A stretch of DNA of 64,000 nucleotides, from the NCBI GenBank assembly GCA_963664815.2, contig CAXXHB010000003.1, forward strand, positions 1,376,001 through 1,440,000. The letters run 5' to 3'. Shown here in pieces: positions 1,614 to 25,205 of this stretch. Numbering within the stretch: the first letter of the stretch is position 1; each line of letters starts with the position of its first letter. This stretch comes from Spirochaetota bacterium. GTDB taxonomy: Bacteria > Spirochaetota > UBA4802 > UBA5550. The notes below the pieces were generated by a model, which saw only the letters and a program-made list of their open reading frames with translations, was not told the origin of the DNA and did no database searches. Made by a program: the position numbers and the translations under genes.

Positions 1614-1994
1614 GTTGTACTCAAAAAGAACAAAAATGCTTTAACAAATATTGGAGGTTCTTATGATACGAGTATTAGTTCTTTATCCTAGAAAAGATAA
1701 TAGCAAATTTGATTTTAATTATTATAAAAATAATCATATGACATTGGTTAAAAAGAAATTAGAACCTATAAAAATAGAAATTGATCAAGGTTTAGATAGT
1801 AATAATAAACCATCTCCGTTTTATGTAGTGAGCCATATGTTATTTAATTCAAGAGAAGAACTTGCATTAAAATATGCCAAATTTGGAAAAGAATTAAATC
1901 TTGATAAAGAAAAATTTACAAACATAGAAATAATTACGCAAGTCAGCGAAATAATTGAAATATAATAAATATTGTTGTGCTTTCAGCGCACAAC
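1614..1994 (+). mobile_element. gene cassette (EthD), GTTGTAC...GCACAAC
   Basis: Core sites at both ends; the two ends are complementary at about 18/24 nt. Confidence 0.6.
1663..1965 (+). CDS. EthD family protein
   Basis: MIRVLVLYP...FDFNYYKNNH motif; GGAGG RBS before ATG 1663. Confidence 0.8.
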   Translation: MIRVLVLYPRKDNSKFDFNYYKNNHMTLVKKKLEPIKIEIDQGLDSNNKPSPFYVVSHMLFNSREELALKYAKFGKELNLDKEKFTNIEIITQVSEIIEI

Positions 1995-2021
1995 ACGATA
2001 TATGACTACACATAGTGGGGG

Positions 2022-2091
2022 TGCCAATGGACAGGTATAAATACTATTCGTATAAGCAGTGAGTAATGATGCCTGTAAATTTCAACACACA
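2022..2091 (+). repeat. intergenic repeat C, copy 1 (second copy 9413-9481)
   Basis: TGCCAATGGACAGGTATAAATAC..TTCGTAT..GCA..GAGTAATGATGCCTGTAAATT..CAACACACA occurs twice, each upstream of a B-type end. Confidence 0.85.
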
Positions 2092-2110
2092 TAAAAAAGC
2101 CGGCCAACCA

Positions 2111-2157
2111 GAATAGTATCTCAATCGGAGAAGATTGATTAAGATACTATTCTTAAC
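2111..2157 (+). repeat. hairpin repeat B, copy 1, abutting the cassette start GTT
   Basis: GAATAGTATCT-CAATC-GGAGAA-GATTG-ATTA-AGATACTATTC then TTAAC|GTT. Confidence 0.85.
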
Positions 2158-2266
2158 GTTATCTGCAATTCCCCCCGACTTGTGCTTGATAACTTTTTGT
2201 TTTTATTCATTATTAAAATATAAGAAAACTTCTTGACTACTAACCATATAATGATTACTTTGATTT

Positions 2267-2530
2267 ATGTACAATATAATCATTAAAAAAAGCATAATGA
2301 AAAATGTCCTGAAGATGCCGAAAGATATTCAATTTCATTTTGAATCTCTTGTTAATGATTTAAGAGAAAAAGGACCAGTTAGAAAAGAATGGCCGAACTT
2401 TAGCAGGTTAGGGAAAAATGAATACCATTGCCACTTATCACATAAATGGGTCGCATGTTGGTATTATGAAAATGATTCAGTAGTTATAGAGGTATATTAT
2501 GCAGGCAGTCGTGAAAACGCCCCGTATTGA
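2267..2530 (+). CDS. RelE/HigB-superfamily toxin
   Basis: 87 aa basic protein with WPNFSRL..YHCHL..WVACW...YAGSRENAPY, upstream of and overlapping an HTH antitoxin. Confidence 0.7.
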   Translation: MYNIIIKKSIMKNVLKMPKDIQFHFESLVNDLREKGPVRKEWPNFSRLGKNEYHCHLSHKWVACWYYENDSVVIEVYYAGSRENAPY

Positions 2531-2867
2531 AATAAACATTAAAGGTGATATTCCGCAGAAGATCATCACTTTATTGAAAGAAGAGTACGGAAAGAAAGTT
2601 CATTTAACAAAAGATGAAGACGATGAATATGTGGATATCTTCGAAACTGATTGGTATAAAAAAATCAGTGCAGAAAAAACTCCGGGCGACAATATGAAGA
2701 TTTACAGAAAGATTCATAAGTTAACTCAGAAAAAACTTGGTGAAATGCTTGGAGAAATTCCGGCGCAACACATTTCAAACATGGAAAACGGATCAAGACC
2801 AATTAGTAAAATTACAGCTAAGAAATTAGCAAAAATATTTGATGTATCAGTAGAACGGTTTATATAA
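2499..2867 (+). CDS. HigA-like XRE HTH antitoxin
   Basis: C-terminal HTH LTQKKLGEMLG..QHISNMENGSRPI. Confidence 0.8.
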   Translation: MQAVVKTPRIEINIKGDIPQKIITLLKEEYGKKVHLTKDEDDEYVDIFETDWYKKISAEKTPGDNMKIYRKIHKLTQKKLGEMLGEIPAQHISNMENGSRPISKITAKKLAKIFDVSVERFI

Positions 2868-2893
2868 TCAAACCGAACGGCGGGGGGAACAGC

Positions 2894-3019
2894 AGATAAC
2901 TTATAGAAGTCTTAACGTAGCTGCCCCAAAAAAACCGCTGGTCTTTATCAGCGATATAAAAATATTAAGCAGATAATTTTAATCTTCAGGCAGCAGCTAT
3001 GTTAAGACTTTTGTTGGAC
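2894..3019 (+). repeat. attC-like repeat A, copy 1
   Basis: AGATAAC TTATA GAAGTCTTAACGTAGCTGCC...AGCTATGTTAAGACTTTT GTTGGAC; the long arms are complementary. Confidence 0.8.
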
Positions 3020-3064
3020 AAAACCACTGACATCGGGCATTTATTATAAAACATGGAGTGAAAA

Positions 3065-3709
3065 ATGGATTGTTGCAAAAAAGTAATTCAATATTCATTG
3101 TTAAGCGGTTTTATTTCAGCTGTAATCTATCCATTGACTGATATTATAGCCGGGAATATGTATAGAGGATATAGCTTTAATGAGCAAGCTGTAAGTGAAT
3201 TATTCGCGATTAATTCACCCGTTGCTCCATTAGTCGTTTTTCTTTTCTCAATATCGAGTGTTTTTTTAATTCTCTTTTCTGCAAGTGTCTTCATGTTTTC
3301 AAAGAATAAAAAAATTATGCGTTTTTTAGCCCTGATGTTATCAGGAAATGCAATCAATAGTCTGATTTTATGGAATTTCTTTCCAATGCATATGCGCAAT
3401 GTTCAGCCTGCATTTACTGATAAAATGCATGCAATTCTGGCAATAAATCCCTTTGTACTCATCAGTATCATCATCGGAGTTTTTATGTATAAAAACTGGT
3501 TCCGTTATTATTCTCTTTTAACCATATTGATATTATTCATTCCGGCATTTTTATCTTTTTCATATATCCCACTGTTATTATCACATCAGCCAACACCATG
3601 GATGGGGTTCACTGAACGTGTATCTCAGTATGGTCATTTGTCATGGCTCGCGGTGTTATCAATTATGTTATTCAATAAAAACAGAGCATTTCAGAAGGGT
3701 AGCCTTTAA
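3065..3709 (+). CDS. DUF998-like membrane protein, copy 1
   Basis: GYSFNEQAVSELFA, FPMHMR, MHAIL and GFTER motifs; several TM segments. Confidence 0.75.
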   Translation: MDCCKKVIQYSLLSGFISAVIYPLTDIIAGNMYRGYSFNEQAVSELFAINSPVAPLVVFLFSISSVFLILFSASVFMFSKNKKIMRFLALMLSGNAINSLILWNFFPMHMRNVQPAFTDKMHAILAINPFVLISIIIGVFMYKNWFRYYSLLTILILFIPAFLSFSYIPLLLSHQPTPWMGFTERVSQYGHLSWLAVLSIMLFNKNRAFQKGSL

Positions 3710-4108
3710 AAATTCTGATACTGTTCTTTTTCAGGCTCTATAGAGATGGGGCAGATTCAGACACCCGATGAAAAATTCTTTATGGCTTAAAAACCGATGC
3801 TTTCAAACACATATGAAAAAGAGACTTAAACTTTCTGTTCTAATGATGAAATTCTTATATCTGCAGGACAAATTAAAATTGTACGGCACAGAATGATAAT
3901 TTTTGACAGGAACCCATTTTTAAAAGAAGATACTGATTATTTCTGCTATAAAAAACTGGAATTAAAACAGCTAACAGCCGCTGGTTGTATAGAGAGCTTA
4001 AGACGGCTTGAGCCGTATTAAAGGCGACCGGAGGAAGTGCCTGTGGTAAAACTTTCACGCACGGTTCTTATGGGGGAAAGGGGGTGTAAACTCCATGACC
4101 TGCCAGAC
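3710..4108 (+). mobile_element. group II intron 3' remnant (maturase C-terminus, DV, DVI)
   Basis: Decayed frame SDTVLFQAL*RWGRFRHPMK..WLKNR and KIVRHRMIIFDRNPFLKEDTDYF; DV GAGCCGTAT...ACTTTCACGCACGGTTC (4010-4067); DVI ending GACCTGCCAGAC. Confidence 0.85.
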
Positions 4109-4256
4109 TGTCGCTTCGAGGCTATAACTTTGGGACTGCTGTCCATGGCGGCGTTAATTGGGTAGAGTATATCATGAAATTTGACTATTAATGAAATGCT
4201 TACTATCATATAAACGAGGTGTAATTTTTTAAGTATTATGAATAAAACCATTCGGG

Positions 4257-5297
4257 ATGAAGGAGCAAGATGGGGAAATGATAAAAAAATCAATCATAGC
4301 GACGCTCATCGCAGGTTTGCTTTTCATTATTCTGACAGAGGATAATTTTGGCCATATGAATACGGTAAAACGTGCTTTTCTGATTTTTACAGCATTTATT
4401 GTACTTTGTACCTGCATTTACTGCTTTGTCCTTGCATTCTTTTCCTTCATCAGCGGGTGGAGAGTTCTGAGTCTCAAGTTTCCTTTACCGGAAACAGTCC
4501 AATCCGACTCTCTCCTTTTTTATACCCAAAGCGTTGGGATGGGTTATATGTACTACTCCATGAGTGTGGATATCAGGTTCATCGACGCAGGCCTGATTTT
4601 TTCCCAGTCCCGCTTTTTTACTTTTATGCACAGGCCATTCATTGTGCCATATGAAAAAGTCGAACATCCCGGGAAAATTAATTCATCCGATTCGGATCTT
4701 GAATTCACAGTTGAAGGGATCAAAATGAGGATGTCAGGTGAATCAGCGGAAGCCCTTATTAAGAAAAAAATGAATCCATCTCTCCCAATCGTTTCACTCA
4801 GGAGTGGTAAGGATGATCCCGACAGATCTATGAAAAAGGGGGGAGAGAAGTTCATCACGAGAAAATGCCGGTTCGAAGAACTTCAGCCCGGTTTCATTTC
4901 ACAGGTACGTGATTTTATTAAACATAAAAAAATAGACGGCCTTCAAGATGCGATGGTGCATTGCTGCGAAACAGCATACATGAAAAAGGGATTTTTCCTC
5001 GGGACAGTCTATCACCAGTACACGGACCTGCTATTAACCGGTGAGTGGTTTTTCTGGGGAGTCTGCGACGGCGATGGCTGCTCATCCGGGTGCGCAAAAA
5101 TAAAGGATATTACCGAAATCCATGATCCAGAGGAAATCCTCACCTTGAACCCGCTGGAAATCAGAGGTATCAATATAACCGGCTTCCACTACGACGAATC
5201 AGATCTCACCTCATGGCGCTTAAATGTGGGAAATGATGAGGAGAGCACATCATTCAGGAGGAAATTCGCGGAATTGGTCAGTAAATATCGCAAATAG
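4257..5297 (+). CDS. hypothetical membrane-anchored protein
   Basis: 346-aa ORF with two N-terminal TM helices; start may be 4278. Confidence 0.6.
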   Translation: MKEQDGEMIKKSIIATLIAGLLFIILTEDNFGHMNTVKRAFLIFTAFIVLCTCIYCFVLAFFSFISGWRVLSLKFPLPETVQSDSLLFYTQSVGMGYMYYSMSVDIRFIDAGLIFSQSRFFTFMHRPFIVPYEKVEHPGKINSSDSDLEFTVEGIKMRMSGESAEALIKKKMNPSLPIVSLRSGKDDPDRSMKKGGEKFITRKCRFEELQPGFISQVRDFIKHKKIDGLQDAMVHCCETAYMKKGFFLGTVYHQYTDLLLTGEWFFWGVCDGDGCSSGCAKIKDITEIHDPEEILTLNPLEIRGINITGFHYDESDLTSWRLNVGNDEESTSFRRKFAELVSKYRK

Positions 5298-5339
5298 TTA
5301 AGTTCACTTGATCAGGCCTATTTGTGCTAAACGAACGGA

Positions 5340-5522
5340 GGCCTTCGAGGTAAGAAGACGATACAGAAAATAGCCCAAATGTATGGAGTACACCCGAATC
5401 AGGTAACGCTTTGGAAAAAGCAGCTGATAGATAATGCAACATCAGCCTTTGATAAAGATGTCAAAGACAAAGACCTGGAAGAATCAGAAAAGAAGCAGGA
5501 TGAGCTATACAGCCAGGTAGGA
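5340..5522 (+). pseudogene. IS3-family OrfA (HTH) fragment
   Basis: LRGKKTIQKIAQMYGVHPNQVTLWKKQLIDNA...ELYSQVG. Confidence 0.8.
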
Positions 5523-5538
5523 GCTTCCCGTTTAACCT

Positions 5539-5585
5539 GAATAGTATCTCAATCGGAGAAGATTGATTAAGGCACTACCCTTAAC
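5539..5585 (+). repeat. hairpin repeat B, copy 2
   Basis: GAATAGTATCTCAATCGGAGAAGATTGATTAAGGCACTACCCTTAAC. Confidence 0.85.
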
Positions 5586-5668
5586 TTTATATGCAATGCC
5601 CGTCATTCATGAAAAATGCTTGACTTTTCATGAAACTTGATTATGTTACCCATAATGGAGGTGATATT

Positions 5669-5947
5669 ATGGCAATCCTGCAGGTTCGCGATATTGATGA
5701 TAGATTGTATGCTTCACTAAAAGCAATTGCAAAAAGTCAAAACAGATCTATCAGCCAGGAAGTAATTTCTATTATAGAAAAGTATCTTTCAAATCCGTCG
5801 GTTTATAAAAGTAATCCAACAAGAGAATTCATAGCTCTTTCCGGTGCATGGGATGACGATCGAGGTGCAGATGAAATAATTGATTCGATAAAAAAATCTC
5901 GTAAAAACTCTGAAAGATTTAAAAAAGAAAATGTCCTATTTGATTGA
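5669..5947 (+). CDS. FitA-like ribbon-helix-helix antitoxin
   Basis: MAILQVRDIDDRLYASLKAIAKSQNRSISQEV; GGAGG RBS. Confidence 0.8.
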   Translation: MAILQVRDIDDRLYASLKAIAKSQNRSISQEVISIIEKYLSNPSVYKSNPTREFIALSGAWDDDRGADEIIDSIKKSRKNSERFKKENVLFD

Positions 5948-6332
5948 TACAAATATAATAATTTATAGCATCAAAGGTGATTCTGTTGTTCATGAACATT
6001 TATTGAAAAATGAAAACATACCAAAATCAATATCCGTAGTCACATATGGAGAGTTGCTGTTTGGTGCTAAAAAATCTCAAAATTATGAAAAGAATTTAGC
6101 TATAGTTTATCGGATAAAAGAATTATTTCCTGTCATTGATATAGATAAAGCCATTATTGAAACCTTCAGTGAATTAAAAGCAAATCTGCAAAAATCAGGT
6201 TACCCAATAGATGATTTTGATTTGTTGATAGCGTCAACAGCTCTGACCATGAATTCAATTTTAGTCACAAATAATGAAAAACATTTTAATAGAATAAAAG
6301 GATTAAAAATAGAAAACTGGTCAAAGAAATAA
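5931..6332 (+). CDS. vapC: VapC PIN-domain toxin
   Basis: YLIDTNII, ELLFGA, DFDLLIA and LVTNNEKHF PIN motifs. Confidence 0.9.
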   Translation: MSYLIDTNIIIYSIKGDSVVHEHLLKNENIPKSISVVTYGELLFGAKKSQNYEKNLAIVYRIKELFPVIDIDKAIIETFSELKANLQKSGYPIDDFDLLIASTALTMNSILVTNNEKHFNRIKGLKIENWSKK

Positions 6333-6628
6333 ATAACGGGCACTGCATATAATGCTTACAACGCTGCGCTCGCGAAAAAATTCGTCTGGCCCTGCGGCAC
6401 ATTAAGGCAAAAGGCCGCCGCAAAGTCGGTAAGCAATGCGTTTAACAAAACCGCCTGCCTGATGAATGCCGGAGACATGGGCAACATGCTTTAATTTATT
6501 AGTTCTCAAATATTTCGAATTAAATCATTGGAGTGTAATATGATAAATATTGCTTACCTCAGTTAAATACTTGCTATTTCTGTTACTGGTATTAGTTTTT
6601 TAGCCATATGAGTTTTTGAAATACTATT

Positions 6629-6677
6629 CACAATGGGGTTAAAAATTAATACTCTTTTTTGCCCCATTGATTTTTTC
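6629..6677 (+). terminator. intrinsic terminator-like hairpin
   Basis: CAATGGGG...CCCCATTG followed by a T-run. Confidence 0.45.
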
Positions 6678-6729
6678 TTTAAAAAATTTGCCTAACTAAA
6701 GTAATTATAAAAATCAAGGAGCAAGTATC

Positions 6730-7737: not shown

Positions 7738-7861
7738 GCATAATTTATGGAAGCATTAACGTAGCCGTCTAAAAACCGCTGGTCTTTATCAGCGGTATAA
7801 AAATATTAGAATAGATAATTTTAATCTTCAGGCAGCAGCTATGTTAAGACTTTTGTTGGAC
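7738..7861 (+). repeat. attC-like repeat A, copy 2
   Basis: GCATAAT TTATG GAAGCATTAACGTAGC...GCTATGTTAAGACTTTTGTTGGAC. Confidence 0.8.
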
Positions 7862-7906
7862 AAAACCACTGACATCGGGCATTTATTATAAAACATGGAG
7901 TGAAAA

Positions 7907-8551
7907 ATGAATTGTTGCAAAAAAGTAATTCAATATTCATTGTTAAGCGGTTTTATTTCAGCTGTAATCTATCCATTGACTGATATTATAGCCGGGAATA
8001 TGTATAGAGGATATAGCTTTAATGAGCAAGCTGTAAGTGAATTATTCGCGATTAATTCACCCGTTGCCCCATTAGTCGTTTTTCTTTTCTCAATATCGAG
8101 TGTTTTTTTAATTCTCTTTTCTGCAAGTGTCTTCATGTTTTCAAAGAATATAAAAATTATGCGTTTTTTAGCCATGATGTTATCAGGAAATGCAATCAAT
8201 AGTCTGATTTTATGGAATTTCTTTCCAATGCATATGCGCAATGTTCAGCCTGAATTTACTGATAAAATGCATGCAATTTTGGCAATAAATCCCTTTGTAC
8301 TCATCAGTATCATCATCGGAGTTTTTATGTATAAAAACTGGTTCCGTTATTATTCTCTTTTAACCATATTGATATTATTCATTCCGGCATTTTTATCTTT
8401 TTCATATATCCCACTGTTATTATCACATCAGCCAACACCATGGATGGGGTTCACTGAACGTGTATCTCAGTATGGTCATTTGTCATGGCTCGCGGTGTTA
8501 TCAATTATGTTATTCAATAAAAACAGAGCATTTCAGAAGGGTAGCCTTTAA
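7907..8551 (+). CDS. DUF998-like membrane protein, copy 2
   Basis: Differs from 3065-3709 at only 4 of 214 aa. Confidence 0.75.
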   Translation: MNCCKKVIQYSLLSGFISAVIYPLTDIIAGNMYRGYSFNEQAVSELFAINSPVAPLVVFLFSISSVFLILFSASVFMFSKNIKIMRFLAMMLSGNAINSLILWNFFPMHMRNVQPEFTDKMHAILAINPFVLISIIIGVFMYKNWFRYYSLLTILILFIPAFLSFSYIPLLLSHQPTPWMGFTERVSQYGHLSWLAVLSIMLFNKNRAFQKGSL

Positions 8552-9518: not shown

Positions 9519-10030
9519 GTTATGCAAAAGCCTGAAAATTTTTTGAGGTAGTTAATGGAATCTTTTGAATTAAAAGGAAACAACGGTTTTATCAAATTTA
9601 CTATAATAGAATTACCCGAATTTCCGAATCGCACACATTTTACTGGTGGCTATGATTGTAAAATCAATATTGAAATCAAAGCTGGAATATTCACAGGAAA
9701 TGGTGAGTTATGGAGTTCTACTGGAGAACTATTTCAATTTTATTCATCATTGAAAAAATCTTATGAAACTCTTGAAGGTGAAATAAACTATTATAATTAT
9801 GAATCAAATATATCTATTCACTTAAATTTTGATTTCTCTGGTCATTGTATAATTACTGGCGAGTACTATAATTATTCTGATTCGGCGAATGTATTAAATT
9901 TCAGAATTGAAAGTGATCAATCATATATTAAAGAAAGTTTGTTTGAATTAGAAAAAATATCGAATAAATATGGCGGGATGCTAGGTGTAAAACAAAAATA
10001 AATGTATTAATTGTCAGGCTATTGCATAAC
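9519..10030 (+). mobile_element. gene cassette carrying WapI-like gene
   Basis: GTTATGCAAAAGCCTGAAAATT versus AATTGTCAGGCTATTGCATAAC (20/22 inverted match). Confidence 0.85.
9555..10001 (+). CDS. putative WapI-like immunity protein
   Basis: ELFQFYSSLKKSYETLEG..YE..GH...G...ESDQSYI pattern recalled for WapI-family proteins. Confidence 0.5.
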   Translation: MESFELKGNNGFIKFTIIELPEFPNRTHFTGGYDCKINIEIKAGIFTGNGELWSSTGELFQFYSSLKKSYETLEGEINYYNYESNISIHLNFDFSGHCIITGEYYNYSDSANVLNFRIESDQSYIKESLFELEKISNKYGGMLGVKQK

Positions 10031-10147
10031 TTATAGAAGTCATAAAGTAGCTGCCCAAAAGAATAGTTATCAATTACGGTGGTATATAAATATTATGCAG
10101 ATAGTTTTAAGTTTCAGACAACAGCAATGCTAAGACATTTGTTGGAC
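10024..10147 (+). repeat. attC-like repeat A, copy 3 (diverged)
   Basis: GCATAAC TTATAGAAGTCATAAAGTAGCTGCCC...GCTAAGACATTTGTTGGAC, followed by the same Y tail. Confidence 0.8.
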
Positions 10148-10227
10148 GAAACCACTGGCATCGGGCAGAACATACTTCGTTTTTAAGCTCATAACAATCA
10201 TGGGAATTTGAATCCTGTTTTCTACTG

Positions 10228-10269
10228 GTATCTCAATCAGTGAAGATTGACTGAGATACTCTTCTTAAC
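10228..10269 (+). repeat. hairpin repeat B, copy 3
   Basis: GTATCTCAATCAGTGAAGATTGACTGAGATACTCTTCTTAAC|GTT. Confidence 0.85.
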
Positions 10270-10378
10270 GTTATATGAAAGTGAGCCCCATTCAATAGTA
10301 CGCCAAAATCTTATCTCCGTATAAATATTTTGCTCGTGTTTCTATGTTGGATTCCAGCTTTTCATCCAAATTTTCAGT

Positions 10379-10411
10379 TGCAATTAATTATAAAGATTAT
10401 TACTTTGTAAT
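10379..10411 (+). promoter_or_regulatory. TA promoter with operator palindrome
   Basis: TTGCAA -35-like hexamer; ATTAC-TTT-GTAAT palindrome at 10399-10411. Confidence 0.5.
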
Positions 10412-10431
10412 TACATAAAAGAGGTGCTGTT

Positions 10432-10677
10432 ATGATAGCAAAAATAATTCAAATAGGAAATTCAAAAGGAATACGGATTCCAAATCAGGTTTTAAAAGAA
10501 ATGAATATTGAAAATCAGATAGAACTTATAATAAGTGATAAAAAAGATGAAATAATCCTTAAACCAATTCATAAAGCCCGGGAAGGGTGGAATGAATCAT
10601 TTAAGAAAATGAGAACTGCTTATGATGATAAACTTATCATTGATGATTCATTAGATTTGAATGATTGGGAATGGTGA
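10432..10677 (+). CDS. mazE: AbrB/MazE antitoxin
   Basis: KIIQIGNSKGIRIP; acidic C-terminus ..DWEW. Confidence 0.85.
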   Translation: MIAKIIQIGNSKGIRIPNQVLKEMNIENQIELIISDKKDEIILKPIHKAREGWNESFKKMRTAYDDKLIIDDSLDLNDWEW

Positions 10678-10680
10678 GAA

Positions 10681-11004
10681 ATGGAGATTTTACAATATAG
10701 CATATATCTGGTGAATCTAGATCCGACAATAGGGCATGAAATTAAAAAAACCCGTCCATGCCTTGTTATATCACCAGATGAAATGAATCTGAATATTCAA
10801 ACAGTTATAATTGCTCCAATGACAACTAAGTCTCATAAATATCCAACCAGAGTTCAGGTGACTGTTCAGGATAAAAAAGGATGGATAGTGTTAGATCAAA
10901 TAAGAACAATAGATAATCAGCGGCTCATCAAAAAAATCGGTAAAATTAATAATGAAACAATAAAACAAGTCAAGGGTGTCATCAAAGAGATGCTTGTTGA
11001 TTAA
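10681..11004 (+). CDS. mazF: PemK/MazF toxin
   Basis: VNLDPTIGHEIKKTRPCLVIS, APMTT and DQIRTID motifs. Confidence 0.9.
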   Translation: MEILQYSIYLVNLDPTIGHEIKKTRPCLVISPDEMNLNIQTVIIAPMTTKSHKYPTRVQVTVQDKKGWIVLDQIRTIDNQRLIKKIGKINNETIKQVKGVIKEMLVD

Positions 11005-11057
11005 CTTCACGTAGAAATATATTATTCAATTTGTTGTTCGCATTGGGCTTCAACTTC

Positions 11058-11119
11058 ATATAACTTATAGAAATCTTAATGCAGCAGCCCAAAAAAACCG
11101 CTGGTCTTTATCAGCGGTA
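11058..11119 (+). repeat. attC-like repeat A, copy 4 (5' half only)
   Basis: ATATAAC TTATAGAAATCTTAATGCAGCAGCCC...TCAGCGGTA, cut off by an IS21-like end. Confidence 0.8.
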
Positions 11120-11170
11120 TGTCAACACCAATTAGAACTTGCCGCTTTTCACCGATATAATTTTGCCGGT
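11120..11170 (+). mobile_element. IS21-family-like terminal repeat, copy 2
   Basis: TGTCAACACCAATTAGAACTTGCCGCTTTTCACCGATATAATTTTGCCGG. Confidence 0.65.
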
Positions 11171-11178
11171 ATATAAAA

Positions 11179-11850
11179 TTACCATAAATAAGGTAAAAGT
11201 CTATACCTGGTTTTATAAATATAATCAGAATAACCTTTGAGTTCATTCTTCAGGGTTTTATCCTCCAGGTATGTTCTTACTATATTAAGAATTATTAACA
11301 TACCTGCAGGTATTATACTCCATAAAGAACCAAATAACAATGGGAATCCAAGTGTCTGGATAATTATTCCCATATAGCCGGGATGTCTTACAGATTTATA
11401 CAGGCCGGTATCACAGACCACATGTCCTCTGTCTTTCTGAATCCTGACAGTACTTGAAAAAAATCTGTTCTGCTTTTGCGCGACCAGAAATAAAAGTTGT
11501 CCTGTCACAGTGAGCAATATGCCCGCCACTGACAGGCTCCAATGAAAAACAGGGGACCATTGGAAGCGGCCGGAATCGAGTCCGGCTGTAATATACATGC
11601 ATATTGTAGCTGAGAATGATAATAGTAAAACGACCTTATCCCAGCTTTTAATTCCTTCTCCCGGTTTTGAACGTTCTTTCATCAGATCGGGTTCCGGCTT
11701 CAAAGCCGTGTAGTTTAAAATCAGCATAACAAGTCCTAAAGATGCATAAATCAGTCCCTGCATATATTTCAGGCGGCCTGCACTGACAAAAATAAGAGTA
11801 AAAAATATTAAAGTACCAACAACCTGCTTAATAAAAAGATTTGCCTTCAT
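11179..11850 (-). CDS. isoprenylcysteine carboxyl methyltransferase (ICMT/PEMT) family protein
   Basis: NRFFSSTVRIQKDRGH, GLYKSVRHPGY, RTYLEDKTL and YRLLPYLW motifs. Confidence 0.85.
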   Translation of the reverse strand: MKANLFIKQVVGTLIFFTLIFVSAGRLKYMQGLIYASLGLVMLILNYTALKPEPDLMKERSKPGEGIKSWDKVVLLLSFSATICMYITAGLDSGRFQWSPVFHWSLSVAGILLTVTGQLLFLVAQKQNRFFSSTVRIQKDRGHVVCDTGLYKSVRHPGYMGIIIQTLGFPLLFGSLWSIIPAGMLIILNIVRTYLEDKTLKNELKGYSDYIYKTRYRLLPYLW

Positions 11851-11953
11851 ATTAACACCTTATAAAATTAGTTTGTGAATAAACAATTATCATAAAAAAG
11901 AGAGACAGTAAAGGGCCAATTTCCAGGTATTTTACTCAGCCAATTTAAATAAT

Positions 11954-13420
11954 ATGATACTTACAGTTGATAAAAATTTAAAGATTCCGGTGTTTGAACA
12001 GATTCTCAGGCAAATAACCGGTATGATAAATAACGGCACATTAAAAGCCGGTGACAGACTCCTGTCAACACGTGAGCTGGCTGAATTGTCGGGAGTAAGC
12101 AGGTCGACTGTCAGCCGTGTATATGAAGAACTGTGGGCACAGGGGTATATTGAAAGCACTCCCGGATCATATACAACTGTAAGAAAAAGAAAAATTACAC
12201 AGTCAAATGGAGAAGAATACAGCAAATATAATAATCCGGAAATAAATTTTTTCAGAGACACACATGGTCTGCCATACGACCCGATGATGTATTACCTTGA
12301 AAACGGTAAAAATATAGAAAAAGGGAAGATAAATTTTTTACAGTTATCTCCGGACACACGGCTGCTTAACTGGAATAAAGTAAAAGCATGTATGAGAGAT
12401 GCCCTCAATGAAACAGAAATTGATCCCTTTGATTTCGCCCCTGCGAGAGGATTCCCGCCGCTGAGACAGGAAATTGCCAGACATATGAAGCTTCACAATA
12501 TTCCGGTGGATGACAAAAACATACTTGTTACAAATAGTTCACTTCAGTCGCTGCAACTGATCTTTCAGACATTCTCCAGGCCTGGAGATTGTATTGTTAT
12601 TGAAAAGCCGACCTATTCGATTATCCTGTTATTTATAAAAATATTCCAGCTTCAGGCTGTTGAGATACCGATTACCGGCGAAGGAATGGATCTGAAAATA
12701 CTGGAAAAGGTATTAAATGAGAAATCTGTAAAATTTATCTACACAATGCCTGCATACCAGAATCCAACAGGGATATCTATGCCTCAGGACAAAAAAGAAG
12801 CGCTTCTTAATTTATGCAGAAACAGGGATTGTATAATCATTGAAGATGGTTTTGAAGAAGAAATTAAATATAAAGGAGAGGCACATAAACCACTCAAATC
12901 AATGGATATAAGCGGGCAGGTAATTTATCTTGGCGCTTTTACAAAAATACTGGCTCCGGGATTAAGGATGGGCTGGTTAATTGCCACGGCGGAGTGTATA
13001 AAAAAACTGACAGTATTAAAATCGATATTCGAAATATCATCCGGTTCAATAAATCAGATATTCCTCAATAATTTCATTCAAAACGGTGCTTTTGAATTGT
13101 ATCTCAGGAAAACCAGGAATGTCTTTAAAAAAAGAATGGAAATTGCTGTTAATTCGATAAAAAAATATGTCCCTCCCGAAAAGATCGAATGGACAGAACC
13201 AGATGGAGGTTATATGATATGGATAAAGCTGTTGACCCGGTTAATGGATAATATAGAAAATCATTTTACAGACTACGGAGTAATGGTTCATAACGGCAAA
13301 TACTTTTTTTTAAACGAGCCGTGCTTTAATTATATCCGTTTATGCATAGCGCAGACAAATGAGAGTGAAATAGAAGAGGGTATAAAAAGAATAGGAGAAG
13401 CCATCAAAGCCCTTGAATAA
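11954..13420 (+). CDS. MocR/GabR-family GntR regulator with aminotransferase-like domain
   Basis: N-terminal GntR HTH (GDRLLSTRELA..VSRSTV); QNPTG and K..APGLRMGW. Confidence 0.9.
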   Translation: MILTVDKNLKIPVFEQILRQITGMINNGTLKAGDRLLSTRELAELSGVSRSTVSRVYEELWAQGYIESTPGSYTTVRKRKITQSNGEEYSKYNNPEINFFRDTHGLPYDPMMYYLENGKNIEKGKINFLQLSPDTRLLNWNKVKACMRDALNETEIDPFDFAPARGFPPLRQEIARHMKLHNIPVDDKNILVTNSSLQSLQLIFQTFSRPGDCIVIEKPTYSIILLFIKIFQLQAVEIPITGEGMDLKILEKVLNEKSVKFIYTMPAYQNPTGISMPQDKKEALLNLCRNRDCIIIEDGFEEEIKYKGEAHKPLKSMDISGQVIYLGAFTKILAPGLRMGWLIATAECIKKLTVLKSIFEISSGSINQIFLNNFIQNGAFELYLRKTRNVFKKRMEIAVNSIKKYVPPEKIEWTEPDGGYMIWIKLLTRLMDNIENHFTDYGVMVHNGKYFFLNEPCFNYIRLCIAQTNESEIEEGIKRIGEAIKALE

Positions 13421-16520: not shown

Positions 16521-16551
16521 CAGGGTTATAAAAAATTGGAGGTAAAAATAA

Positions 16552-18185: not shown

Positions 18186-18260
18186 TTGTAAATTAATATT
18201 TATTTTTGAGTTTTTTATATTTGTTCCAAAAAATGGATTTTCGCGCAATTGCAGGTAAAC

Positions 18261-19892: not shown

Positions 19893-19902
19893 GAAACATG
19901 GA

Positions 19903-20006
19903 CTGGTTGTATAATAAGTTTCAGACGGCCCGAGTTGTACGATGGGAGACTTTCACGTATGGTTCTTATGCGGGACGGGGAGTGAATGCTCCATGACCTG
20001 CCGGAC
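19903..20006 (+). mobile_element. group II intron DV-DVI remnant
   Basis: CTGGTTGTATA..AGACGGCCC GAGTTGTACGATGGGAGACTTTCACGTATGGTTC TTATG...GACCTGCCGGAC, homologous to 3981-4108. Confidence 0.8.
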
Positions 20007-20222
20007 TTGCATATTTATTATTTAAGGAGGAATTACAAAATGCATGATAATCCTGACTATAATTCAGCTCTTGAGTTATTTAAAAAACAAAATATTTTTT
20101 TAGTTTGATGGAATCAATAAAATAGAATAAAATGGCTTATCTTATCCGGGAATAATCTGTTTTATTTAAGGCACAATGGAAAAGGCGGAATGTGATTTGA
20201 AAATGAATAAAGGCTGGTAAAC

Positions 20223-20744: not shown

Positions 20745-20823
20745 AAACTGCACACAGTTGAAGATGTACTGCCTGCATTAAGCTGCAGGTACGTTCTTTT
20801 CAATCTATACCTCGCGGAAGTTT

Positions 20824-20878
20824 TAAATTACATAACTGTTGATTCGGATGAAATAAGATCAACAGTTATGTAATTTTA
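20824..20878. repeat. long AT-rich inverted repeat
   Basis: AAATTACATAACTGTTGAT...ATCAACAGTTATGTAATTT perfect arms. Confidence 0.8.
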
Positions 20879-20900
20879 ATACCGGAATAATTAAATTTAA

Positions 20901-20955
20901 TATCAACACCGGTTGGAAATTGCCGTTTTTTTCAAACGTAATCTCTTTGCCGGTT
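20901..20955 (+). mobile_element. IS21-family-like terminal repeat, copy 3 (diverged)
   Basis: TATCAACACCGGTTGGAAATTGCCGTTTTTTCAAACG...TTTGCCGG. Confidence 0.5.
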
Positions 20956-21240
20956 ATAATGTTGACATAAAGGAAGATAAAAGAGAATTGTAAAAAATAC
21001 TTTGCTGATTCTTATAGTTCGCATCAGACAGGAACAGATTAAAATACAGGCAGATTAATCCGGCAGTATTTTCCTGAAGATTCAGACTTTAAAAATTATC
21101 CGGCGGTGATATCCGATCTGCTGTTAAAATTTAAATAAAAGAACAGGAATACGGATGGGATATTATATGCAAAATGATGTTTTGTAAAGTATTGCACTTG
21201 ATCATTGTATTCATGATATCAATTCAGGAGGATTTTATTT

Positions 21241-22893
21241 ATGAATAGTGACAGAATAAAGAAAGGTTTTGATAAGACCGGACAATGTGCGCTAATTTAT
21301 GCAACAGGCGTATCTCCTCAGTCAATTGACCGGCCATTTGTCGGAATCGCCAGTTCATTCAGCGATCTGGTTCCGGGACATATCGATATGAGATCGCTTG
21401 AGAGACAGATTGAAAAGGGAATTCATTCCGGTGGAGGAAATGCATTCATTTTCGGGTTACCGGCAATATGCGACGGCATCACAATGGGGCATAAAGGGAT
21501 GCATTACTCTCTTCCATCAAGGGAATTGATTGCGGATAGTATAGAATCGGTTGCAACTGCGCATGCTCTGGACGGACTGGTTCTTTTAACCAACTGCGAT
21601 AAAATAACTCCCGGAATGTTGATGGGGGCATTACGGTTGAATATTCCTTTTATTGTTGTTACAGCGGGTCCCATGCTTACAGGTCGATATAGAGGTGAAA
21701 AGCTGACACTTGTAAAGAACGCATTCGAAGCAGTCGGAAGTTATAAAGCAGGTTTTATTAATGATGAAGAACTTCATAATTTTCAACTCGAAGCCTGCCC
21801 CGGAGCCGGATCCTGCCAGGGACTATACACCGCAAACACGATGGCATGCATTTGTGAAGCTATGGGATTGTCGTTGCCGGGTTGCGCGACGGCTTTGGCT
21901 GTTTCTTCAAGAAAGAAACGCATCGCATTTGACAGCGGATTTCAGATTGTTGAATTGATAAAAAATAATATAAATCCTCAAACCATAGTAACTAAAAACG
22001 CTTTTGAAAATGCCATTTTTGTTGATATGGCTCTGGGCGGGTCAACCAATACAGTTTTACATTTACCTGCTATTGCACATGAAGCAAATATAAGTATTGG
22101 CTATCCTGATTTCATTGAAATTGCAGAAAAAGCTGTTTATATTTCCGCGATCCAGCCATCGGGCGACTATGCAATGGAAGATCTGGAGTATGCCGGAGGC
22201 ATACCGGCAGTATTGAAGGCTGTTATGCCGATGTTGAAAAACAATCCGACCGTTTCAGGTATGGATATTATTGAAATAGCTGAACGGGGGGAAATTGTGG
22301 ATACTGATGTCATTCATTCATCAGATAATCCGATTAAAAAAGGTGGAGGGATAGCTATTCTTTTCGGAAACATAGCGCCAGATGGTGCAGTTGTCAAAAC
22401 AGCAGCAATGACTCCGAATATGCGCAGATTCAGGGGTGTTGCCAGACCATTTGATTCAGAGGATGATGCTATGAAAGCGATTCTTGGTGAAACTGTTAAA
22501 CCTGGTGACTGTGTAATAATCAGGTATGAAGGCCCGAAGGGTGGACCGGGGATGCGGGAGATGCTGTCGCCAACCTCTGCTTTGTTCGGGTTGGGACTGG
22601 GAGATAAAGTTGCTCTTTTAACGGATGGACGTTTTTCCGGTGGTACAAGAGGAAATTGTATTGGCCATGTCTCACCTGAAGCATATGAATGTGGTACCAT
22701 TGCCCTGGTTGAAGATGGTGATATTATAGAATATGATGTTGATGCCGGAACTATAAATCTGAATGTTGACCAGATAATTTTAGACAAAAGAAAAAAATCC
22801 TGGCAGGCCCGTTCTCCTAAAGTTACTGCCGGATATTTATCAAAGTATATCAAACAGGTTTCTTCATGTCATCTTGGAGCAGTATGCTCCTGA
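21241..22893 (+). CDS. ilvD: dihydroxy-acid dehydratase
   Basis: [34 protein letters not shown] and TDGRFSGGT motifs. Confidence 0.96.
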
Positions 22894-23034
22894 GTTATGT
22901 TATTTGTTAAGGTGTAATCAATATATTATCGCTTAATTTTCTTTTAAATTTATTAATTGCAATAATATATCGATACACTTTGATAACAGATGACGCAGGA
23001 TTGCATCAGAATATATTTATTCATGGAGGATATA

Positions 23035-23844
23035 ATGACTGACAGAACAGGTATTCTCTGTTTCTCTGCGACTAATACAACAAAAATAATATGTAATGCT
23101 GTTGCTTCCGGAATGGGATCTGTTAATCCGCTGATTCTGGATATGACTCTTCCGGATAAAAGGGGAGAAATTATTGCTGATGTAAAAACACTGCTGGACC
23201 GGATAGATTATTTAATTGTAGGTGCACCTGTTTATTCCGGCAAACTGCCGCCTGATGTTATAGAGTGTCTCAAAGCTTTTAATGGTTCCGGTAAAAAAGC
23301 TGCAGCGATTGTTGTATATGGCAATAGGGACTATGGAGTTTCACTTTATAATATGGTTGAAATACTTTCTCAAAATGATTTTAATGTTGTTGCCGCAGCT
23401 GCATTTGTTGCCCAGCATTCATATTCGGATATTGTACCTGTTGCAATGGGGCGTCCGGATAAATCAGATATAGAGAAGGCACAAAAGTTTGGAGCACAGA
23501 TATTGTCTGCTTCCGGGCCCCTTAGCCTTAAAGATATTCCGCTTCAGATTGACCAGCATTCAAAGTCGGAAAAATATTCATCTCTAAAACCATCTTATAA
23601 TGAAAAACTATGCATTAAATGCGGAAGGTGCGGTAAGACCTGCCCGGCCGGTATACTGTCATCTGATACGGGCAGATATTTAAACCGATCTGTCAGGAAG
23701 AACTGTATAGGATGTATGGCCTGTGTTAAAAATTGTAAACCTGGAGCAAGGTTTTTAAAAGTGAATCCGGCAGTAAAAATGGTTATGAATAAAATTCTCA
23801 GGCAGGCATCTGCTGAAAGAAAGGAGCCGTTTATAATTATCTGA
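23035..23844 (+). CDS. EFR1-family flavodoxin/ferredoxin
   Basis: FSATNTT, PVY and VYGNRDY motifs plus two CxxCxxCxxxC clusters. Confidence 0.85.
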   Translation: MTDRTGILCFSATNTTKIICNAVASGMGSVNPLILDMTLPDKRGEIIADVKTLLDRIDYLIVGAPVYSGKLPPDVIECLKAFNGSGKKAAAIVVYGNRDYGVSLYNMVEILSQNDFNVVAAAAFVAQHSYSDIVPVAMGRPDKSDIEKAQKFGAQILSASGPLSLKDIPLQIDQHSKSEKYSSLKPSYNEKLCIKCGRCGKTCPAGILSSDTGRYLNRSVRKNCIGCMACVKNCKPGARFLKVNPAVKMVMNKILRQASAERKEPFIII

Positions 23845-24028
23845 CTGGAAAATCAGCCGTATTAAGTATGTTTAAAACAACACAAAAATACGGCTGAAAT
23901 CCGCCGCCAAAGTATCGGCCCGGACATTGCCGCATTGCATCAATAGGCCGTGAAGCTTCAGACGGCCTGAGCCGGGAGATGAAATCAGTACCCTTATTTG
24001 CAGAAGTAGCGGCTGGAGGTTTAAAATA

Positions 24029-24310
24029 ATGAAGATATATCAGATTGATGCTTTTACCAGTGAATGCTTCAAAGGAAATCCGTCAGGGGTATGTATATTA
24101 ACCGATACCGGTAATGTTAATGAAGATCCTGTAACCGGTTCAGCTCATTCATATTTAGCACCGTATTGGTACGGGAAATTAAATAAAAAAGTATTAAATG
24201 CATATCAGGCATCAAAACACGGCGGTGAAATTCAATATGAATTGACAACAGATAAGAGAGTATTGCTTAGATGGAAGGGGGTAACAATTTTTGAAATTGA
24301 AATTGAAAAA
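24029..24310 (+). pseudogene. PhzF-family gene with large internal deletion
   Basis: N-terminal QIDAFT..FKGNP joined directly to C-terminal EDPVTGSAH..LAPYW..YQASKHGG. Confidence 0.8.
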
Positions 24311-24325
24311 AAATCCGGCCAGCCT

Positions 24326-24372
24326 GAAGAGTATCTGCACCGGAGAAAACTGTTTAAGATACCCTTCTTGAG
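24326..24372 (+). repeat. hairpin repeat B, copy 4 (diverged)
   Basis: Preceded by CCGGCCAGCCT (cf. CCGGCCAACCA at 2100); GAAGAGTATCT...CGGAGAA...AGATACCCTTC. Confidence 0.75.
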
Positions 24373-25205
24373 GGTATGCAGAAATGCAGTTTAAAATGCA
24401 ATAACCTTTTATATCGGAGGAATATGACACAGATTAAAACAATCGGAACTTTTAAGGTAATACTGCTTTATGCAATTACTTCATCGCTGATATATTCAGG
24501 ATTATATTTTGTAATTCCTGTTTTATTAAAATCAGGACTTTTATTTTTTCCCTCATATTTAATTACATTTTATCCTGCTTTTATTTTAATGTTTATTCTG
24601 ACTTTTATACTTTTAAAACGGGATGGATACAGTTTACGGTATAATGTTTTATCAGAAAGGCTGAGATTAAAAAAACTGACAAAGAAAGATCTTTGGATAA
24701 CATTACTCCTTTTCATTATATGCATTGGCACATATTTTTTATTATCATTTTCCGGTTCTGTACTTGCAAATATCCCTGTGTTCGCACCGCCCGATTTTTT
24801 CCCCCCTGAGATAAACCCGTTAAAACATAAACTTGTTAATGGAACATTTATGAATTATCCTCTGCTCGGTAACTGGTGGATTCCATTAATATATTTTATC
24901 TGCTGGATTTTTAATATTCTGGGTGAAGAACTGTTATGGAGGGGATATCTCATTCCGCGAATGGAATTGAAATGGAAAAATAATGCCTGGATTGTCAATG
25001 GCCTGCTCTGGTGGGTATGGCATTTTTACTGGAAGTGGAATCTGCTGATTCTTTTACCGACAAATTTATTAATTCCATTCGTTGTTCAAAAAAGAAAAAA
25101 TACATGGATAGGGATAATTGTTCACGGAACTATGAATTTTCTGCCTGTTATTTATTTAATTCTTGGAGTAACCGGTGTTGTAAAATAAACAGCATTCAGC
25201 ATAGC
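24373..25205 (+). mobile_element. decayed gene cassette carrying CPBP protease
   Basis: GGTATGCAGAAATGCAGTTTA versus TAAACAGCATTCAGCATAGC (about 17/21 inverted match). Confidence 0.6.
24424..25188 (+). CDS. CPBP (CAAX/Abi) intramembrane protease
   Basis: GEELLWRGY, WxxWH and HGTMN motifs; GGAGG RBS. Confidence 0.88.
   Translation: MTQIKTIGTFKVILLYAITSSLIYSGLYFVIPVLLKSGLLFFPSYLITFYPAFILMFILTFILLKRDGYSLRYNVLSERLRLKKLTKKDLWITLLLFIICIGTYFLLSFSGSVLANIPVFAPPDFFPPEINPLKHKLVNGTFMNYPLLGNWWIPLIYFICWIFNILGEELLWRGYLIPRMELKWKNNAWIVNGLLWWVWHFYWKWNLLILLPTNLLIPFVVQKRKNTWIGIIVHGTMNFLPVIYLILGVTGVVK

Follow-up and report, generated by a model that had tools for sequence, protein, structure and literature searches.

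How does a gene module come to be bounded by a long inverted repeat that it shares with no other module, and which enzyme could have moved it? The question is raised by a stretch of 64,000 nucleotides from a Spirochaetota bacterium (the window), in which a sequence-only reading had recognized six modules of an integron-like cassette array lacking an integrase. It is probable that these modules are integron-type cassettes, and that their array is tied to a recombinase devoid of the additional domain of integron integrases (IntI).

The first 30 bases of each module were compared with the reverse complement of its last 30, and the six end-complementarity counts reported earlier were borne out when arm was set against arm in every module. 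They amount to 18/24 for module 1 (1614-1994), 18/20 for module 2 (2158-2900), 19/21 for module 3 (5586-6353, positions 2-22 of the arms), 20/22 for module 4 (9519-10030), 17/21 for module 5 (10270-11064) and about 17/21 for module 6 (24373-25205), where a 1-base gap is required. Outside the 7-bp core, at positions 8-25, ungapped cognate ends match at 12, 13, 15, 14, 11 and 5 of 18 positions in modules 1 to 6, respectively. The mean was 5 and the maximum 10 of 18 in 30 non-cognate end pairs, and 63 of 20,000 random window pairs with equal spacings reached at least 11 matches. The long cognate pairing is well beyond chance for five of the six modules. The end pairing of module 6 is marginal and weak, with a gapped score of 5 compared to 3 at most in the non-cognate pairs of this module. 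The repeats are private to their modules, as had been claimed, in modules 1-5 (cognate pairs 11-15/18, non-cognate pairs at most 10), but this holds only marginally for module 6. Shuffling the ends had been put forward as a means of refuting the claim; it does not, as the non-cognate pairs score far below the cognate ones. The GTT...AAC-like cores ascribed to all modules are found except in module 3, which has TTTAT...ATAAT, and in module 6, which has GGTAT...ATAGC.

The modules are flanked by conserved interiors of the repeat families D2, D3 and K, which abut them exactly at AAC/ and /GTT (boundaries are marked with a slash). All features described here are on the forward strand. Cassette body 1 (1614..1994; arms at about 1614-1637 and 1971-1994) contains an ORF of 104 aa (1651-1965) with no family in the Pfam scan. 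It is followed by a composite attC-like inter-cassette region (1995..2157) with repeats D2 and D5, ending with a D2 hairpin (2106-2157), after which the junction reads ...CTTAAC/GTT when D2 right boundaries are compared across the genome. Cassette body 2 (2158..2900; arms 2158-2177 and 2881-2900) carries a two-gene, toxin-antitoxin-like module made of an ORF of 87 aa and an HTH_3 protein of 122 aa. It was recovered independently in a genome-wide scan for inverted repeats, as was cassette body 4. The D3-type attC-like interior of cassette 2 (2901..3012) forms an imperfect hairpin about 112 nt long and belongs to a repeat with about 33 copies across the genome. The next unit starts with GTTGGAC at 3013 and is a disrupted cassette space (3013..5533), delineated by Pfam, Rfam and repeats D6 and D11. 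It includes a DUF998 membrane-protein gene (3065-3709, Pfam), a domain V-like remnant of a group II intron (4008-4108; Intron_gpII, under the gathering score with 27.9 bits), an ORF of 346 aa and a short fragment resembling a transposase.

A D2-type attC-like hairpin (5534..5585, a D2 copy with 88% identity) precedes cassette body 3 (5586..6353), which encodes a VapBC-type pair consisting of a FitA-like RHH antitoxin and a PIN toxin. Its arms pair well despite the mutation of position 1 on both sides. The K-type attC-like interior that follows (6354..6439) consists of a GCTTAC...GTAAGC stem with a degenerate left junction; GTTTAAC at 6440 opens the next unit. A D3-type interior with a diverged left arm (7743..7854; repeats D1, D3 and D4) is followed by a second copy of the DUF998 cassette, positions 7813-8112 being 99% identical to 2971-3270. 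Cassette body 4 (9519..10030; arms 9519-9540 and 10009-10030) encodes a WapI-like immunity protein (9555-10001, Pfam). Next to it, the region 10031..10269 consists of a D3 interior (10031-10140), an 'empty' unit without ORF starting with GTTGGAC at 10141, and a D2 hairpin (10218-10269). Cassette body 5 (10270..11064) carries a MazE/MazF (PemK) toxin-antitoxin pair identified with Pfam. Its D3 interior (11065..11170; repeats D3, D4 and D7) is cut by the end of an insertion-sequence-like repeat, of which positions 11118-11170 are 91% identical to 76-128. The recognizable array ends at about 11170, and no further GTT...AAC pairs were found between 11.1 and 24.3 kb of the window. A degenerate D2-like hairpin (24321..24372, a D2 copy with 69% identity) then precedes cassette-like body 6 (24373..25205), which contains a CAAX/Rce1-like protease (24376-25188, Pfam) and has weak arms that can be paired only with a gap.

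The array thus consists, as in integrons, of cassettes made of one or more ORFs and an imperfect palindromic site, with ...AAC and GTT... boundaries. In their predicted folds, circle junctions assembled in silico have a variable tip on an L stem, which a 3x5 internal loop separates from the R stem, and the L stem is free of single extrahelical bases. In the R stem, the first 12 positions or so are semi-conserved (G T T R K N Y G M A A T) and are followed by 5-13 cassette-specific pairs. Position 11 is a conserved mismatch, with A opposite C on the top strand, that is G.T on the bottom strand. The mean predicted fold energy of the circle-junction sites is -41.1 kcal/mol for the bottom strand and -38.9 kcal/mol for the top strand; the identical sites within the array context have -27.8 and -27.2 kcal/mol, respectively. 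Of 18 sites, 16 have the more stable fold on the bottom strand. For the two D3-type sites folded as in-silico circle junctions, the top strand is the more stable. Neither with gathering nor with E-value thresholds did Rfam return a family at the sites. The counts given here exclude a family-free site finder (AAC, 8-mer, reverse complement, GTT), which produced many false sites in AT-rich DNA, and an equally noisy genome-wide boundary table built from 10-16-nt patterns.

The modules could instead be MITE-like non-autonomous transposons, or segments bounded by the ends of IS91-type rolling-circle elements or group II introns, with D2 and D3 as element ends. D2 does end a unit that encodes a tyrosine recombinase and an IS91-family Y2 transposase, and many D3 copies are followed by more than 300 conserved nt with a group II intron remnant. 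However, the terminal repeats differ from one module to the next, so that no single transposase could recognize all of them. Target duplications are absent at the modules, whose flanks are the conserved D2, D3 and K; the combination of a common terminal repeat and a target-site duplication that characterizes MITEs is not found. The recombinase-IS91 unit is itself bracketed by 19-bp cognate arms and sits like a cassette in an array. For this last reason, and also as the complementarity spans the gene and not the repeat, the view of D3 and D2 as IS200/IS605- or IS91-like ends with trapped DNA was dropped. A transposon origin of the modules is considered very improbable, also in light of the cassette movement found in a congener.

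In this congener (G006), two cassettes, A and B, are each present twice, in swapped order, with 99.4-99.7% identity. The identity begins at GTTA, covers the gene, the right arm and the entire downstream interior, and ends at ...AAGAC/GTTA. The unit that moved is therefore arm, gene, arm and downstream attC-like site, unlike a transposon bounded by its inverted repeats, and the limits of identity locate the crossover within the 9-base window AAGAC-GTTA. As in integrons, the cassette moved with its own downstream site, with a crossover at or next to G/TT. Since the moved unit includes the downstream site, the 'private inverted repeat' is the outer stem of the cassette's own site. The site anatomy, the cassette unit and its movement in the congener are shown by sequence comparison. 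Homologous genes lying in fixed synteny in relatives had been named beforehand as a refutation of excisable cassettes; the swapped order is the opposite outcome, and the modules can be regarded as real, once-excisable cassettes. Five public runs contain the stretch as contigs, with 7 joints whose sides measure only 20-52 letters. Loose ends near 2169 and 2896 in public contigs fit other copies of D2 and D3.

The claim that no tyrosine recombinase is encoded in the window agrees with a Pfam scan of the 30 ORFs at 97-25188, and a whole-genome search with TIGR02249 gave no match within the window. The array was nonetheless misnamed when it was called integrase-less. It starts at C3:1364263, about 12 kb upstream of the window, with an attI-like site beside the decayed 3' end of a recombinase gene. 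The window holds the downstream part of this array, and an intact paralogue, P0001, heads another array in the genome. At least six array heads are present in this genome, with one intact recombinase (P0001). At four loci, the recombinase gene or its remnants are followed by an attI-like sequence ending with ...GGATAG(N5-6)/GTT. This putative attI, ...TTCGGATAG(N5-6)/GTT, lies 75-155 nt past the gene or remnant.

P0001 consists of SAM_4 and Phage_integrase domains. It scores 235 bits with NF040815 (cut-off 220) and 220.7 with TIGR02249 (cut-off 265), the latter alignment falling into two stretches that leave out about positions 180-234 of the model. Integron integrases are defined, and detected by software, by their additional domain of about 35 residues near patch III, which includes the I2 helix; P0001 lacks it. 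It has 18 residues in place of 60 in VchIntIA, and is collinear with Treponema-type IntI, including the N-terminal domain, except for 24 and 10 residues that are missing around the WLF motif. The catalytic columns (R, K, HxxR, H and Y) do not vary among 7 homologues, and the top fold matches are 2a3v and 5hxy. The scores of P0001 are far below the equivalog cut-offs for XerC (183.1 vs 335) and XerD (177.5 vs 329.6). Judging from these comparisons of its sequence, P0001 is an IntI/XerA-like enzyme without the IntI-specific additional domain. In a tree of 37 recombinases, IntI and the domain-less family group together, which does not discriminate between gain and loss of the domain. Two other recombinases of this genome, which we labelled Xer-like, branch apart from this group. 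One locus of the tree (L028) is on a contig that ends 444 nt past the gene.

In the genome under study, 10 of the 33 D3-ended units have a cognate arm with at least 17/22 matches within 4 kb upstream, the maximum in the control being 15, and 23 are without cognate arm. In G006, at least 8/11 matches at positions 12-22 were found in 18 of 25 K-delimited intervals (non-cognate mean of 3.13). Further afield, a stem of 17-25 bp follows homologues of P0001 in Spirochaetota, Nitrospirota, Bacillota and Bacteroidota, and the mismatch at position 11 is kept. In 31 cassettes downstream of homologues in other phyla, the proportion of pairing is at least 0.94 up to position 17, with all four bases used. 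The association is partial: of 43 homologue loci followed by 1 kb of sequence or more, 29 have no GTT...AAC pair downstream, including those of the Flavobacterium type, and only 10 have a pair starting within 500 nt of the gene. Homologues of the enzyme are also present in archaeal assemblies, and the cultured carriers include Desulfitobacterium sp. Sab5 and Saccharibacillus kuerlensis DSM 22868. In 25 cassettes adjacent to canonical IntI, taken from three Treponema-type genomes, the paired proportion is 1.0-0.84 over positions 1-7, drops to 0.52 at position 8 and is at background from position 9 on. The earlier suggestion that the extended stem reflects a lineage-specific recombination substrate is strengthened by its recurrence in other arrays, in congeners and in four phyla, and by its absence from canonical Treponema-type integrons.

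The orientation of position 11 bears on two further explanations of the arms. Gene-flanking inverted repeats have the layout of an invertible segment and the arrays are associated with a tyrosine recombinase, so that the arms could be the inverted sites of an invertase acting as a switch. Alternatively, they could pair within the mRNA and regulate or insulate cassette expression. In 26 of the 31 cassettes, position 11 is A in the left arm and G in the reverse complement of the right arm, and the reverse arrangement was found in none of the 31. Inversion would scramble this orientation, which is fixed with respect to the array, and in G006 the two copies of cassette A, like those of cassette B, have equal orientation. 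At the level of the sense RNA, A would face C at position 11, a mismatch and not a wobble pair, which argues against mRNA pairing. Inversion and mRNA pairing, taken together, are scarcely credible.

The more serious competitor is an ordinary integron remnant (CALIN) that was served by a canonical IntI, the long complementarity being neutral and without role in recombination. It could have arisen by template switching at a hairpin that lengthened an imperfect palindrome, or as a footprint of cassette making. Quasipalindrome correction is an established mutational route. The integron-like anatomy of the cassettes and the G/TT-type boundary fit this explanation, as do the decayed arms of modules 1, 5 and 6 and the D3-ended units without cognate arm. 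However, no canonical IntI was found above the TIGR02249 cut-off in this genome, in 5 congeners or in 5 array-bearing genomes of other lineages, that is in none of 11 array-bearing genomes. None of the 25 canonical cassettes of the same phylum has a stem extension. The stem length, the 12-nt consensus and the oriented mismatch at position 11 are kept in four phyla, which would not be expected from a purely neutral process. A remnant of an ordinary integron is therefore considered unlikely.

If the modules are cassettes of a domain-less recombinase, the circular cassette would carry one attC-like site, made of an outer (R) stem, a small asymmetric internal loop, an inner (L) stem and a variable tip. 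The cut would occur at or beside G/TT, where the R stem ends on its inner side. Once the cassette is linear within the array, its 5' end would carry one half of the R stem, and the other half would lie just before the conserved interior of the site. Cassettes would thus look bounded by private inverted repeats because the cut at G/TT splits the R stem of each site. It is presumed that recombination acts, as it does in integrons, on a site folded from a single strand, and that the full stem forms solely when the cassette is an excised circle or when its two ends meet in a long-range panhandle. The full stem may stabilize the folded site and stand in for the missing contacts of the additional domain, and the asymmetry at position 11 may help strand choice. 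A broader proposal can be made only tentatively: that a widespread, unrecognized lineage of integrons exists, in which a Xer/IntI-like enzyme without I2-helix domain captures and shuffles hairpin-bounded cassettes, a long R arm with a fixed wobble or mismatch replacing the recognition of extrahelical bases. The domain-less lineage may represent a pre-IntI state, or 'proto-integron'.

If this is correct, recombination of hairpin cassettes can do without the domain by which integrons are defined and which is considered to enable them. The literature, including Cury et al. 2016 (PMC4889954), describes this domain as necessary for integron recombination, and PMC7790495 presents it as the innovation that turned a double-strand into a single-strand recombinase. 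Integron-type gene capture would extend to Gram-positive bacteria and other phyla, complete integrons being reported as missing from Firmicutes by Cury et al. 2016 (PMC4889954). It would also account for some of the many attC clusters that are called 'integrase-less', and a natural experiment on the co-evolution of structure-specific sites and enzymes would be at hand. A stem that is long and sequence-free and has one oriented mismatch lends itself to direct testing. Such arrays or long outer stems are not described in the literature covered; the supplements of Cury 2016 (Fig. S1) and Ghaly 2022 (figs S2 and S4), which fall outside it, may bear on the novelty.

Among known systems, the window taken alone resembles the CALIN of Cury et al. 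2016 (PMC4889954), a cluster of attC sites that lacks an integron integrase, in that its attC-like sites and cassettes have no integrase close by. Unlike a CALIN, the array has an attI-like head with a decayed recombinase 12 kb upstream, and an intact paralogue is present in the genome. In that study, IntI/Xer intermediates were limited to four proteins, none of which had as many as three attC sites. P0001 scores above the cut-off of the NCBIfam XerA/'integron integrase' model and is predicted to fold like XerA, and Xer proteins are likewise without the additional domain. XerC and XerD differ in that P0001 has an extra N-terminal domain of about 85 residues; they are single housekeeping genes, whereas the P0001 type heads cassette arrays, mostly as decayed copies at multiple loci. 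The analogy with canonical attC sites is incomplete, as the L stem is without predicted extrahelical bases. Treponema-type IntI, of the 'inverted integrase' integrons, shares with P0001 collinear N-terminal, SAM_4 and catalytic domains. Their arrays likewise consist of ORFs with a 3' imperfect palindrome between AAC...GTT bounds, and carry toxin-antitoxin and small accessory genes. The enzyme described here, unlike Treponema-type IntI, is without additional domain, and the canonical R stem of 7-8 bp is replaced by one of 17-25 bp in which position 11 is a conserved mismatch.

For each module, the 30 bases at the start were compared with the reverse-complemented 30 bases at the end. The arms (paired cassette ends) are complementary at 18/24 positions in module 1 (window 1614–1994), 18/20 in module 2 (2158–2900), 19/21 in module 3 (5586–6353), 20/22 in module 4 (9519–10030), 17/21 in module 5 (10270–11064) and about 17/21 in module 6 (24373–25205), where a one-base gap is required. 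The end-complementarity counts of the sequence-only reading, which had claimed private inverted repeats of ~20 bp, were all recovered by this direct printing of the ends. At positions 8–25, beyond the 7-bp core, cognate ends (those of the same module) match at 12, 13, 15, 14, 11 and 5 of 18 positions in modules 1–6, against a mean of 5 and a maximum of 10 for 30 non-cognate end pairs; among random pairs with equal spacings, 63 of 20,000 scored at least 11. Five modules therefore pair far beyond chance, and the end pairing of module 6 is marginal. The core departs from GTT/AAC in modules 3 (TTTAT...ATAAT) and 6 (GGTAT...ATAGC).

Two repeat families, D2 and D3, abut the module ends exactly. D2 is a hairpin of ~52 nt whose 3' end, ...CTTAAC, lies immediately 5' of the module start GTTAT. 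D3, with ~33 clustered copies in the genome, opens with TTATAGAAG immediately 3' of the module end ...ATAAC. Elsewhere in the genome and after module 3, the same place is taken by a third family, K, which runs over 84–144 nt from AAC and AAAGCTTACC to GGTAAGCAAGAC and GTT. D2, D3 and K each form an imperfect palindrome between AAC and GTT. The spacer between modules 4 and 5 (D3, GTTGGAC..., D2) consists of a D3 site and then an empty unit closed by a D2 site. In this genome, a cognate arm matching at 17/22 or more was found within 4 kb upstream in 10 of 33 D3-ended units (control maximum 15), and a genome-wide inverted-repeat scan recovered modules 2 and 4 plus ten bracketed units in other arrays.

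Other elements accompany the arrays. Outside the window, on the same contig (C3) of this genome (G000), one of the ten additional bracketed units, at C3:3695137–3697540 (L007) with 19-bp cognate arms and followed by a D2 site, encloses an IS91-family Y2 transposase and a tyrosine recombinase of 287 residues (37% identity to P0001, the intact tyrosine recombinase of this genome, whose N-terminal domain it lacks); the rolling-circle transposase and its partner seem to be cassette cargo. A multi-copy group II intron remnant comprises the C-terminal part of a maturase-like ORF and a terminus resembling domains V/VI, which scores 27.9 bits with Rfam Intron_gpII, short of the threshold. It occurs at window 3710–4110 and 19903–20007 and, across the genome, behind many D3 copies. 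An insertion-sequence-like end is repeated at 76–128, 11118–11170 and 20930–20955. The copy at 11118 interrupts a D3 site, where the recognisable array ends. Over the next 13 kb come larger metabolic genes (GntR-aminotransferase, amidase, IlvD), none of them bracketed by repeats. At 36913–37012 (−) and 54289–54447 (−) lie a TPP riboswitch and two tRNA genes, which are ordinary and outside the finding.

Movement of cassettes can be followed in a congener with a complete genome (G006), where cassettes extend over at least 40 kb downstream of the gene for a P0001 homologue (57% identity). These take the form ...taagcaagac, GTTAT, a private part, ATAAC and aaagcttacc.... Two of them, A and B, are each present twice with 99.4–99.7% identity, as A-B close to the head and, 34 kb farther along, as B-A. 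The identity starts at GTTA, covers the gene together with the right arm and the whole downstream K interior, and stops at the border between ...AAGAC and GTTA. By these limits, the moved unit is two arms with the gene between them plus the downstream site, precisely as in an integron cassette, and A and B each moved singly. As this unit includes both arms and the downstream site, the private inverted repeat is, after circularisation, the outer stem of the site that the cassette itself carries. The sequence-only reading had set fixed synteny in relatives against its own claim of excisable cassettes; the same G006 cassettes were found in swapped order. Readings of the modules as a transposon, an IS91 element or intron ends were rejected on the private repeats together with the moved unit. 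Among K-delimited G006 intervals, 18 of 25 match at 8/11 or more at positions 12–22 (non-cognate mean 3.13); those that fail are long and probably hold unrecognised sites. The G006 locus (L021+L027, reverse complement, e.g. 10122–13131) also carries a palindromic repeat of ~190–200 nt with arms ATGGCCAGCCGGAATGCGCGC, in many copies between K sites, making short ORF-less units of ~250–260 bp.

The stem was analysed in 31 cassettes from surveyed homologue loci in other genomes. The left-arm consensus is G T T R K N Y G M A A T, beyond which all four bases are used. Pairing of the arms is at least 0.94 up to position 17, ~0.7 at positions 18–19, and at background beyond 21. At position 11, the left arm has A and the right arm, reverse-complemented, has G in 26/31 cassettes (4/6 in the window modules), and the opposite arrangement was found in 0/31. 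In the top strand this gives an A·C mismatch, in the bottom strand a G·T pair. An invertible switch was rejected because the asymmetry always points the same way. As a baseline, 25 cassettes adjoining an IntI over the cut-off in three Treponema-type genomes pair at 1.0–0.84 at positions 1–7, 0.52 at position 8, and at background from position 9. The stem extension could have arisen neutrally, whether through template switching in a hairpin or as a footprint of cassette birth, a possible origin that agrees with the decay of the arms in some cassettes but leaves unexplained why its length and oriented mismatch are conserved across phyla, and why canonical arrays lack both features.

The arms that flank one site in an array belong to two different cassettes, and such neighbours match on average at 7.2 of positions 1–10 and at 3.3 of the next 11. 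Formation of the full stem would thus require either the excised circle or a long-range panhandle spanning the cassette. Folded as circle junctions, 18 G006 sites gave means of −41.1 kcal/mol for the bottom strand and −38.9 for the top strand; the same sites in array context gave −27.8 and −27.2 kcal/mol. The bottom strand folds more stably in 16/18 of them. In the window, two D3-type sites were folded, and both are more stable as the top strand.

Searched genome-wide, the integron-integrase model returned no protein above its cut-off. Its best match was P0001 (C3:1972136–1973209, 357 residues), whose gene is co-oriented with the adjacent cassette run; the first cassette begins with GTTATATGC ~75 nt past its stop. 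Decayed fragments of P0001-type genes lie at six further places in the genome, and an attI-like sequence, ...TTCGGATAGTACAA before GTT, also occurs at two further remnants inspected. One recombinase remnant (C3:1364080–1364184) lies 12 kb upstream of the window; 3' of it, at 1364263, ...GGATAGGACAA is followed by GTTATATGCAATTGCCCCCC, the left arm of the first cassette. This cassette measures 3.3 kb, and its right arm lies just before a D3 site. The array had been described as integrase-less: its own recombinase gene is indeed decayed, but with an intact paralogue in the genome it is not integrase-less by nature. Its first cassette (L121:4233–5933, C3:1364233–1365933) encodes a 566-residue reverse transcriptase (RVT_1) and a 522-residue partner, possibly a module of retron-like or defence type. 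A head gene of 181–190 codons (MAKVKLHPYL... start, no Pfam family) lies 5' of the recombinase gene or remnant at four array heads, with copies at C3:1974167–1974712 and at three or more paralogous places (1360319–1360891, 2571039–2571578, 3700709–3701254). Also upstream of the window, ~7 units of roughly 120–140 nt repeated in tandem (L121:1090–1990, C3:1361090–1361990) sit between the conserved 181-codon head gene and the decayed recombinase gene, with an MNT/HepT toxin-antitoxin pair next.

P0001 contains SAM_4 and Phage_integrase domains. It scores above the cut-off of the NCBIfam XerA/'integron integrase' model (235 vs 220 bits), and below those of the integron-integrase model (220.7 vs 265) and of the XerC and XerD models. 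Its nearest solved relative is VchIntIA (2a3v), in a match split in two pieces with 18 residues in place of 60; the best fold matches of its AlphaFold model (mean pLDDT 80) are 2a3v and XerA. It aligns end to end with a Treponema-type IntI of the same phylum, including the N-terminal domain (~60 aligned residues), and lacks 24+10 residues around the WLF motif, which make up the IntI additional domain. The catalytic columns are unchanged among seven homologues. In a 37-protein tree, IntI and the P0001 family form one well-supported group, with no resolved branching order within it; two recombinases of this genome that we labelled Xer-like fall outside. Canonical IntI above the cut-off was found in 0/11 genomes with long-stem arrays.

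A survey of one genome per species yielded 588 relatives of the recombinase, and 80 loci were kept. At least 1 kb is available downstream of the gene at 43 of them; a cassette bracketed by GTT...AAC starts within 500 nt at 10/43, and farther on in four more. Carriers belong to Spirochaetota, Nitrospirota and Bacillota, with one Bacteroidia assembly; Desulfitobacterium sp. Sab5 (Bacillota) has seven cassettes in 10 kb. No bracketed cassettes were found at Flavobacterium-type homologue loci of the survey. The contig ends less than 1 kb downstream of the gene at 37/80 loci and less than 1 kb upstream at only 10/80, an excess that fits assemblies breaking in a repeat array.

Site anatomy, cassette unit and association with the enzyme are direct observations, and an integron-type system is most likely. 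The recombinase would bind the folded site (R arm, spacer, L arm) and exchange strands between G and TT with attI or another site as partner. An enzyme that lacks the additional domain and its contacts to extrahelical bases probably requires a full duplex R arm, in which ~11–12 base pairs are semi-conserved, a length equal to that of Xer-site arms. The cassette-specific extension would clamp the hairpin, and the oriented mismatch at position 11 would mark the strand. We infer the single-strand pathway and both of these roles.

No description of such arrays was found in the published main texts searched. Cury et al. 2016 (PMC4889954) do not count as IntI those recombinases that lie close to attC sites but lack the IntI signature, and state that complete integrons are absent from Firmicutes. 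Smyshlyaev et al. 2021 call the insertion 'not fully conserved' within their integron-like subgroup. Archaeal integrons, according to Ghaly et al. 2022, have attI immediately 3' of intI, and their IntIs carry the additional domain. In sequence anatomy and in movement in the congener, the present system behaves like an integron, yet its recombinase fails the defining integrase test.
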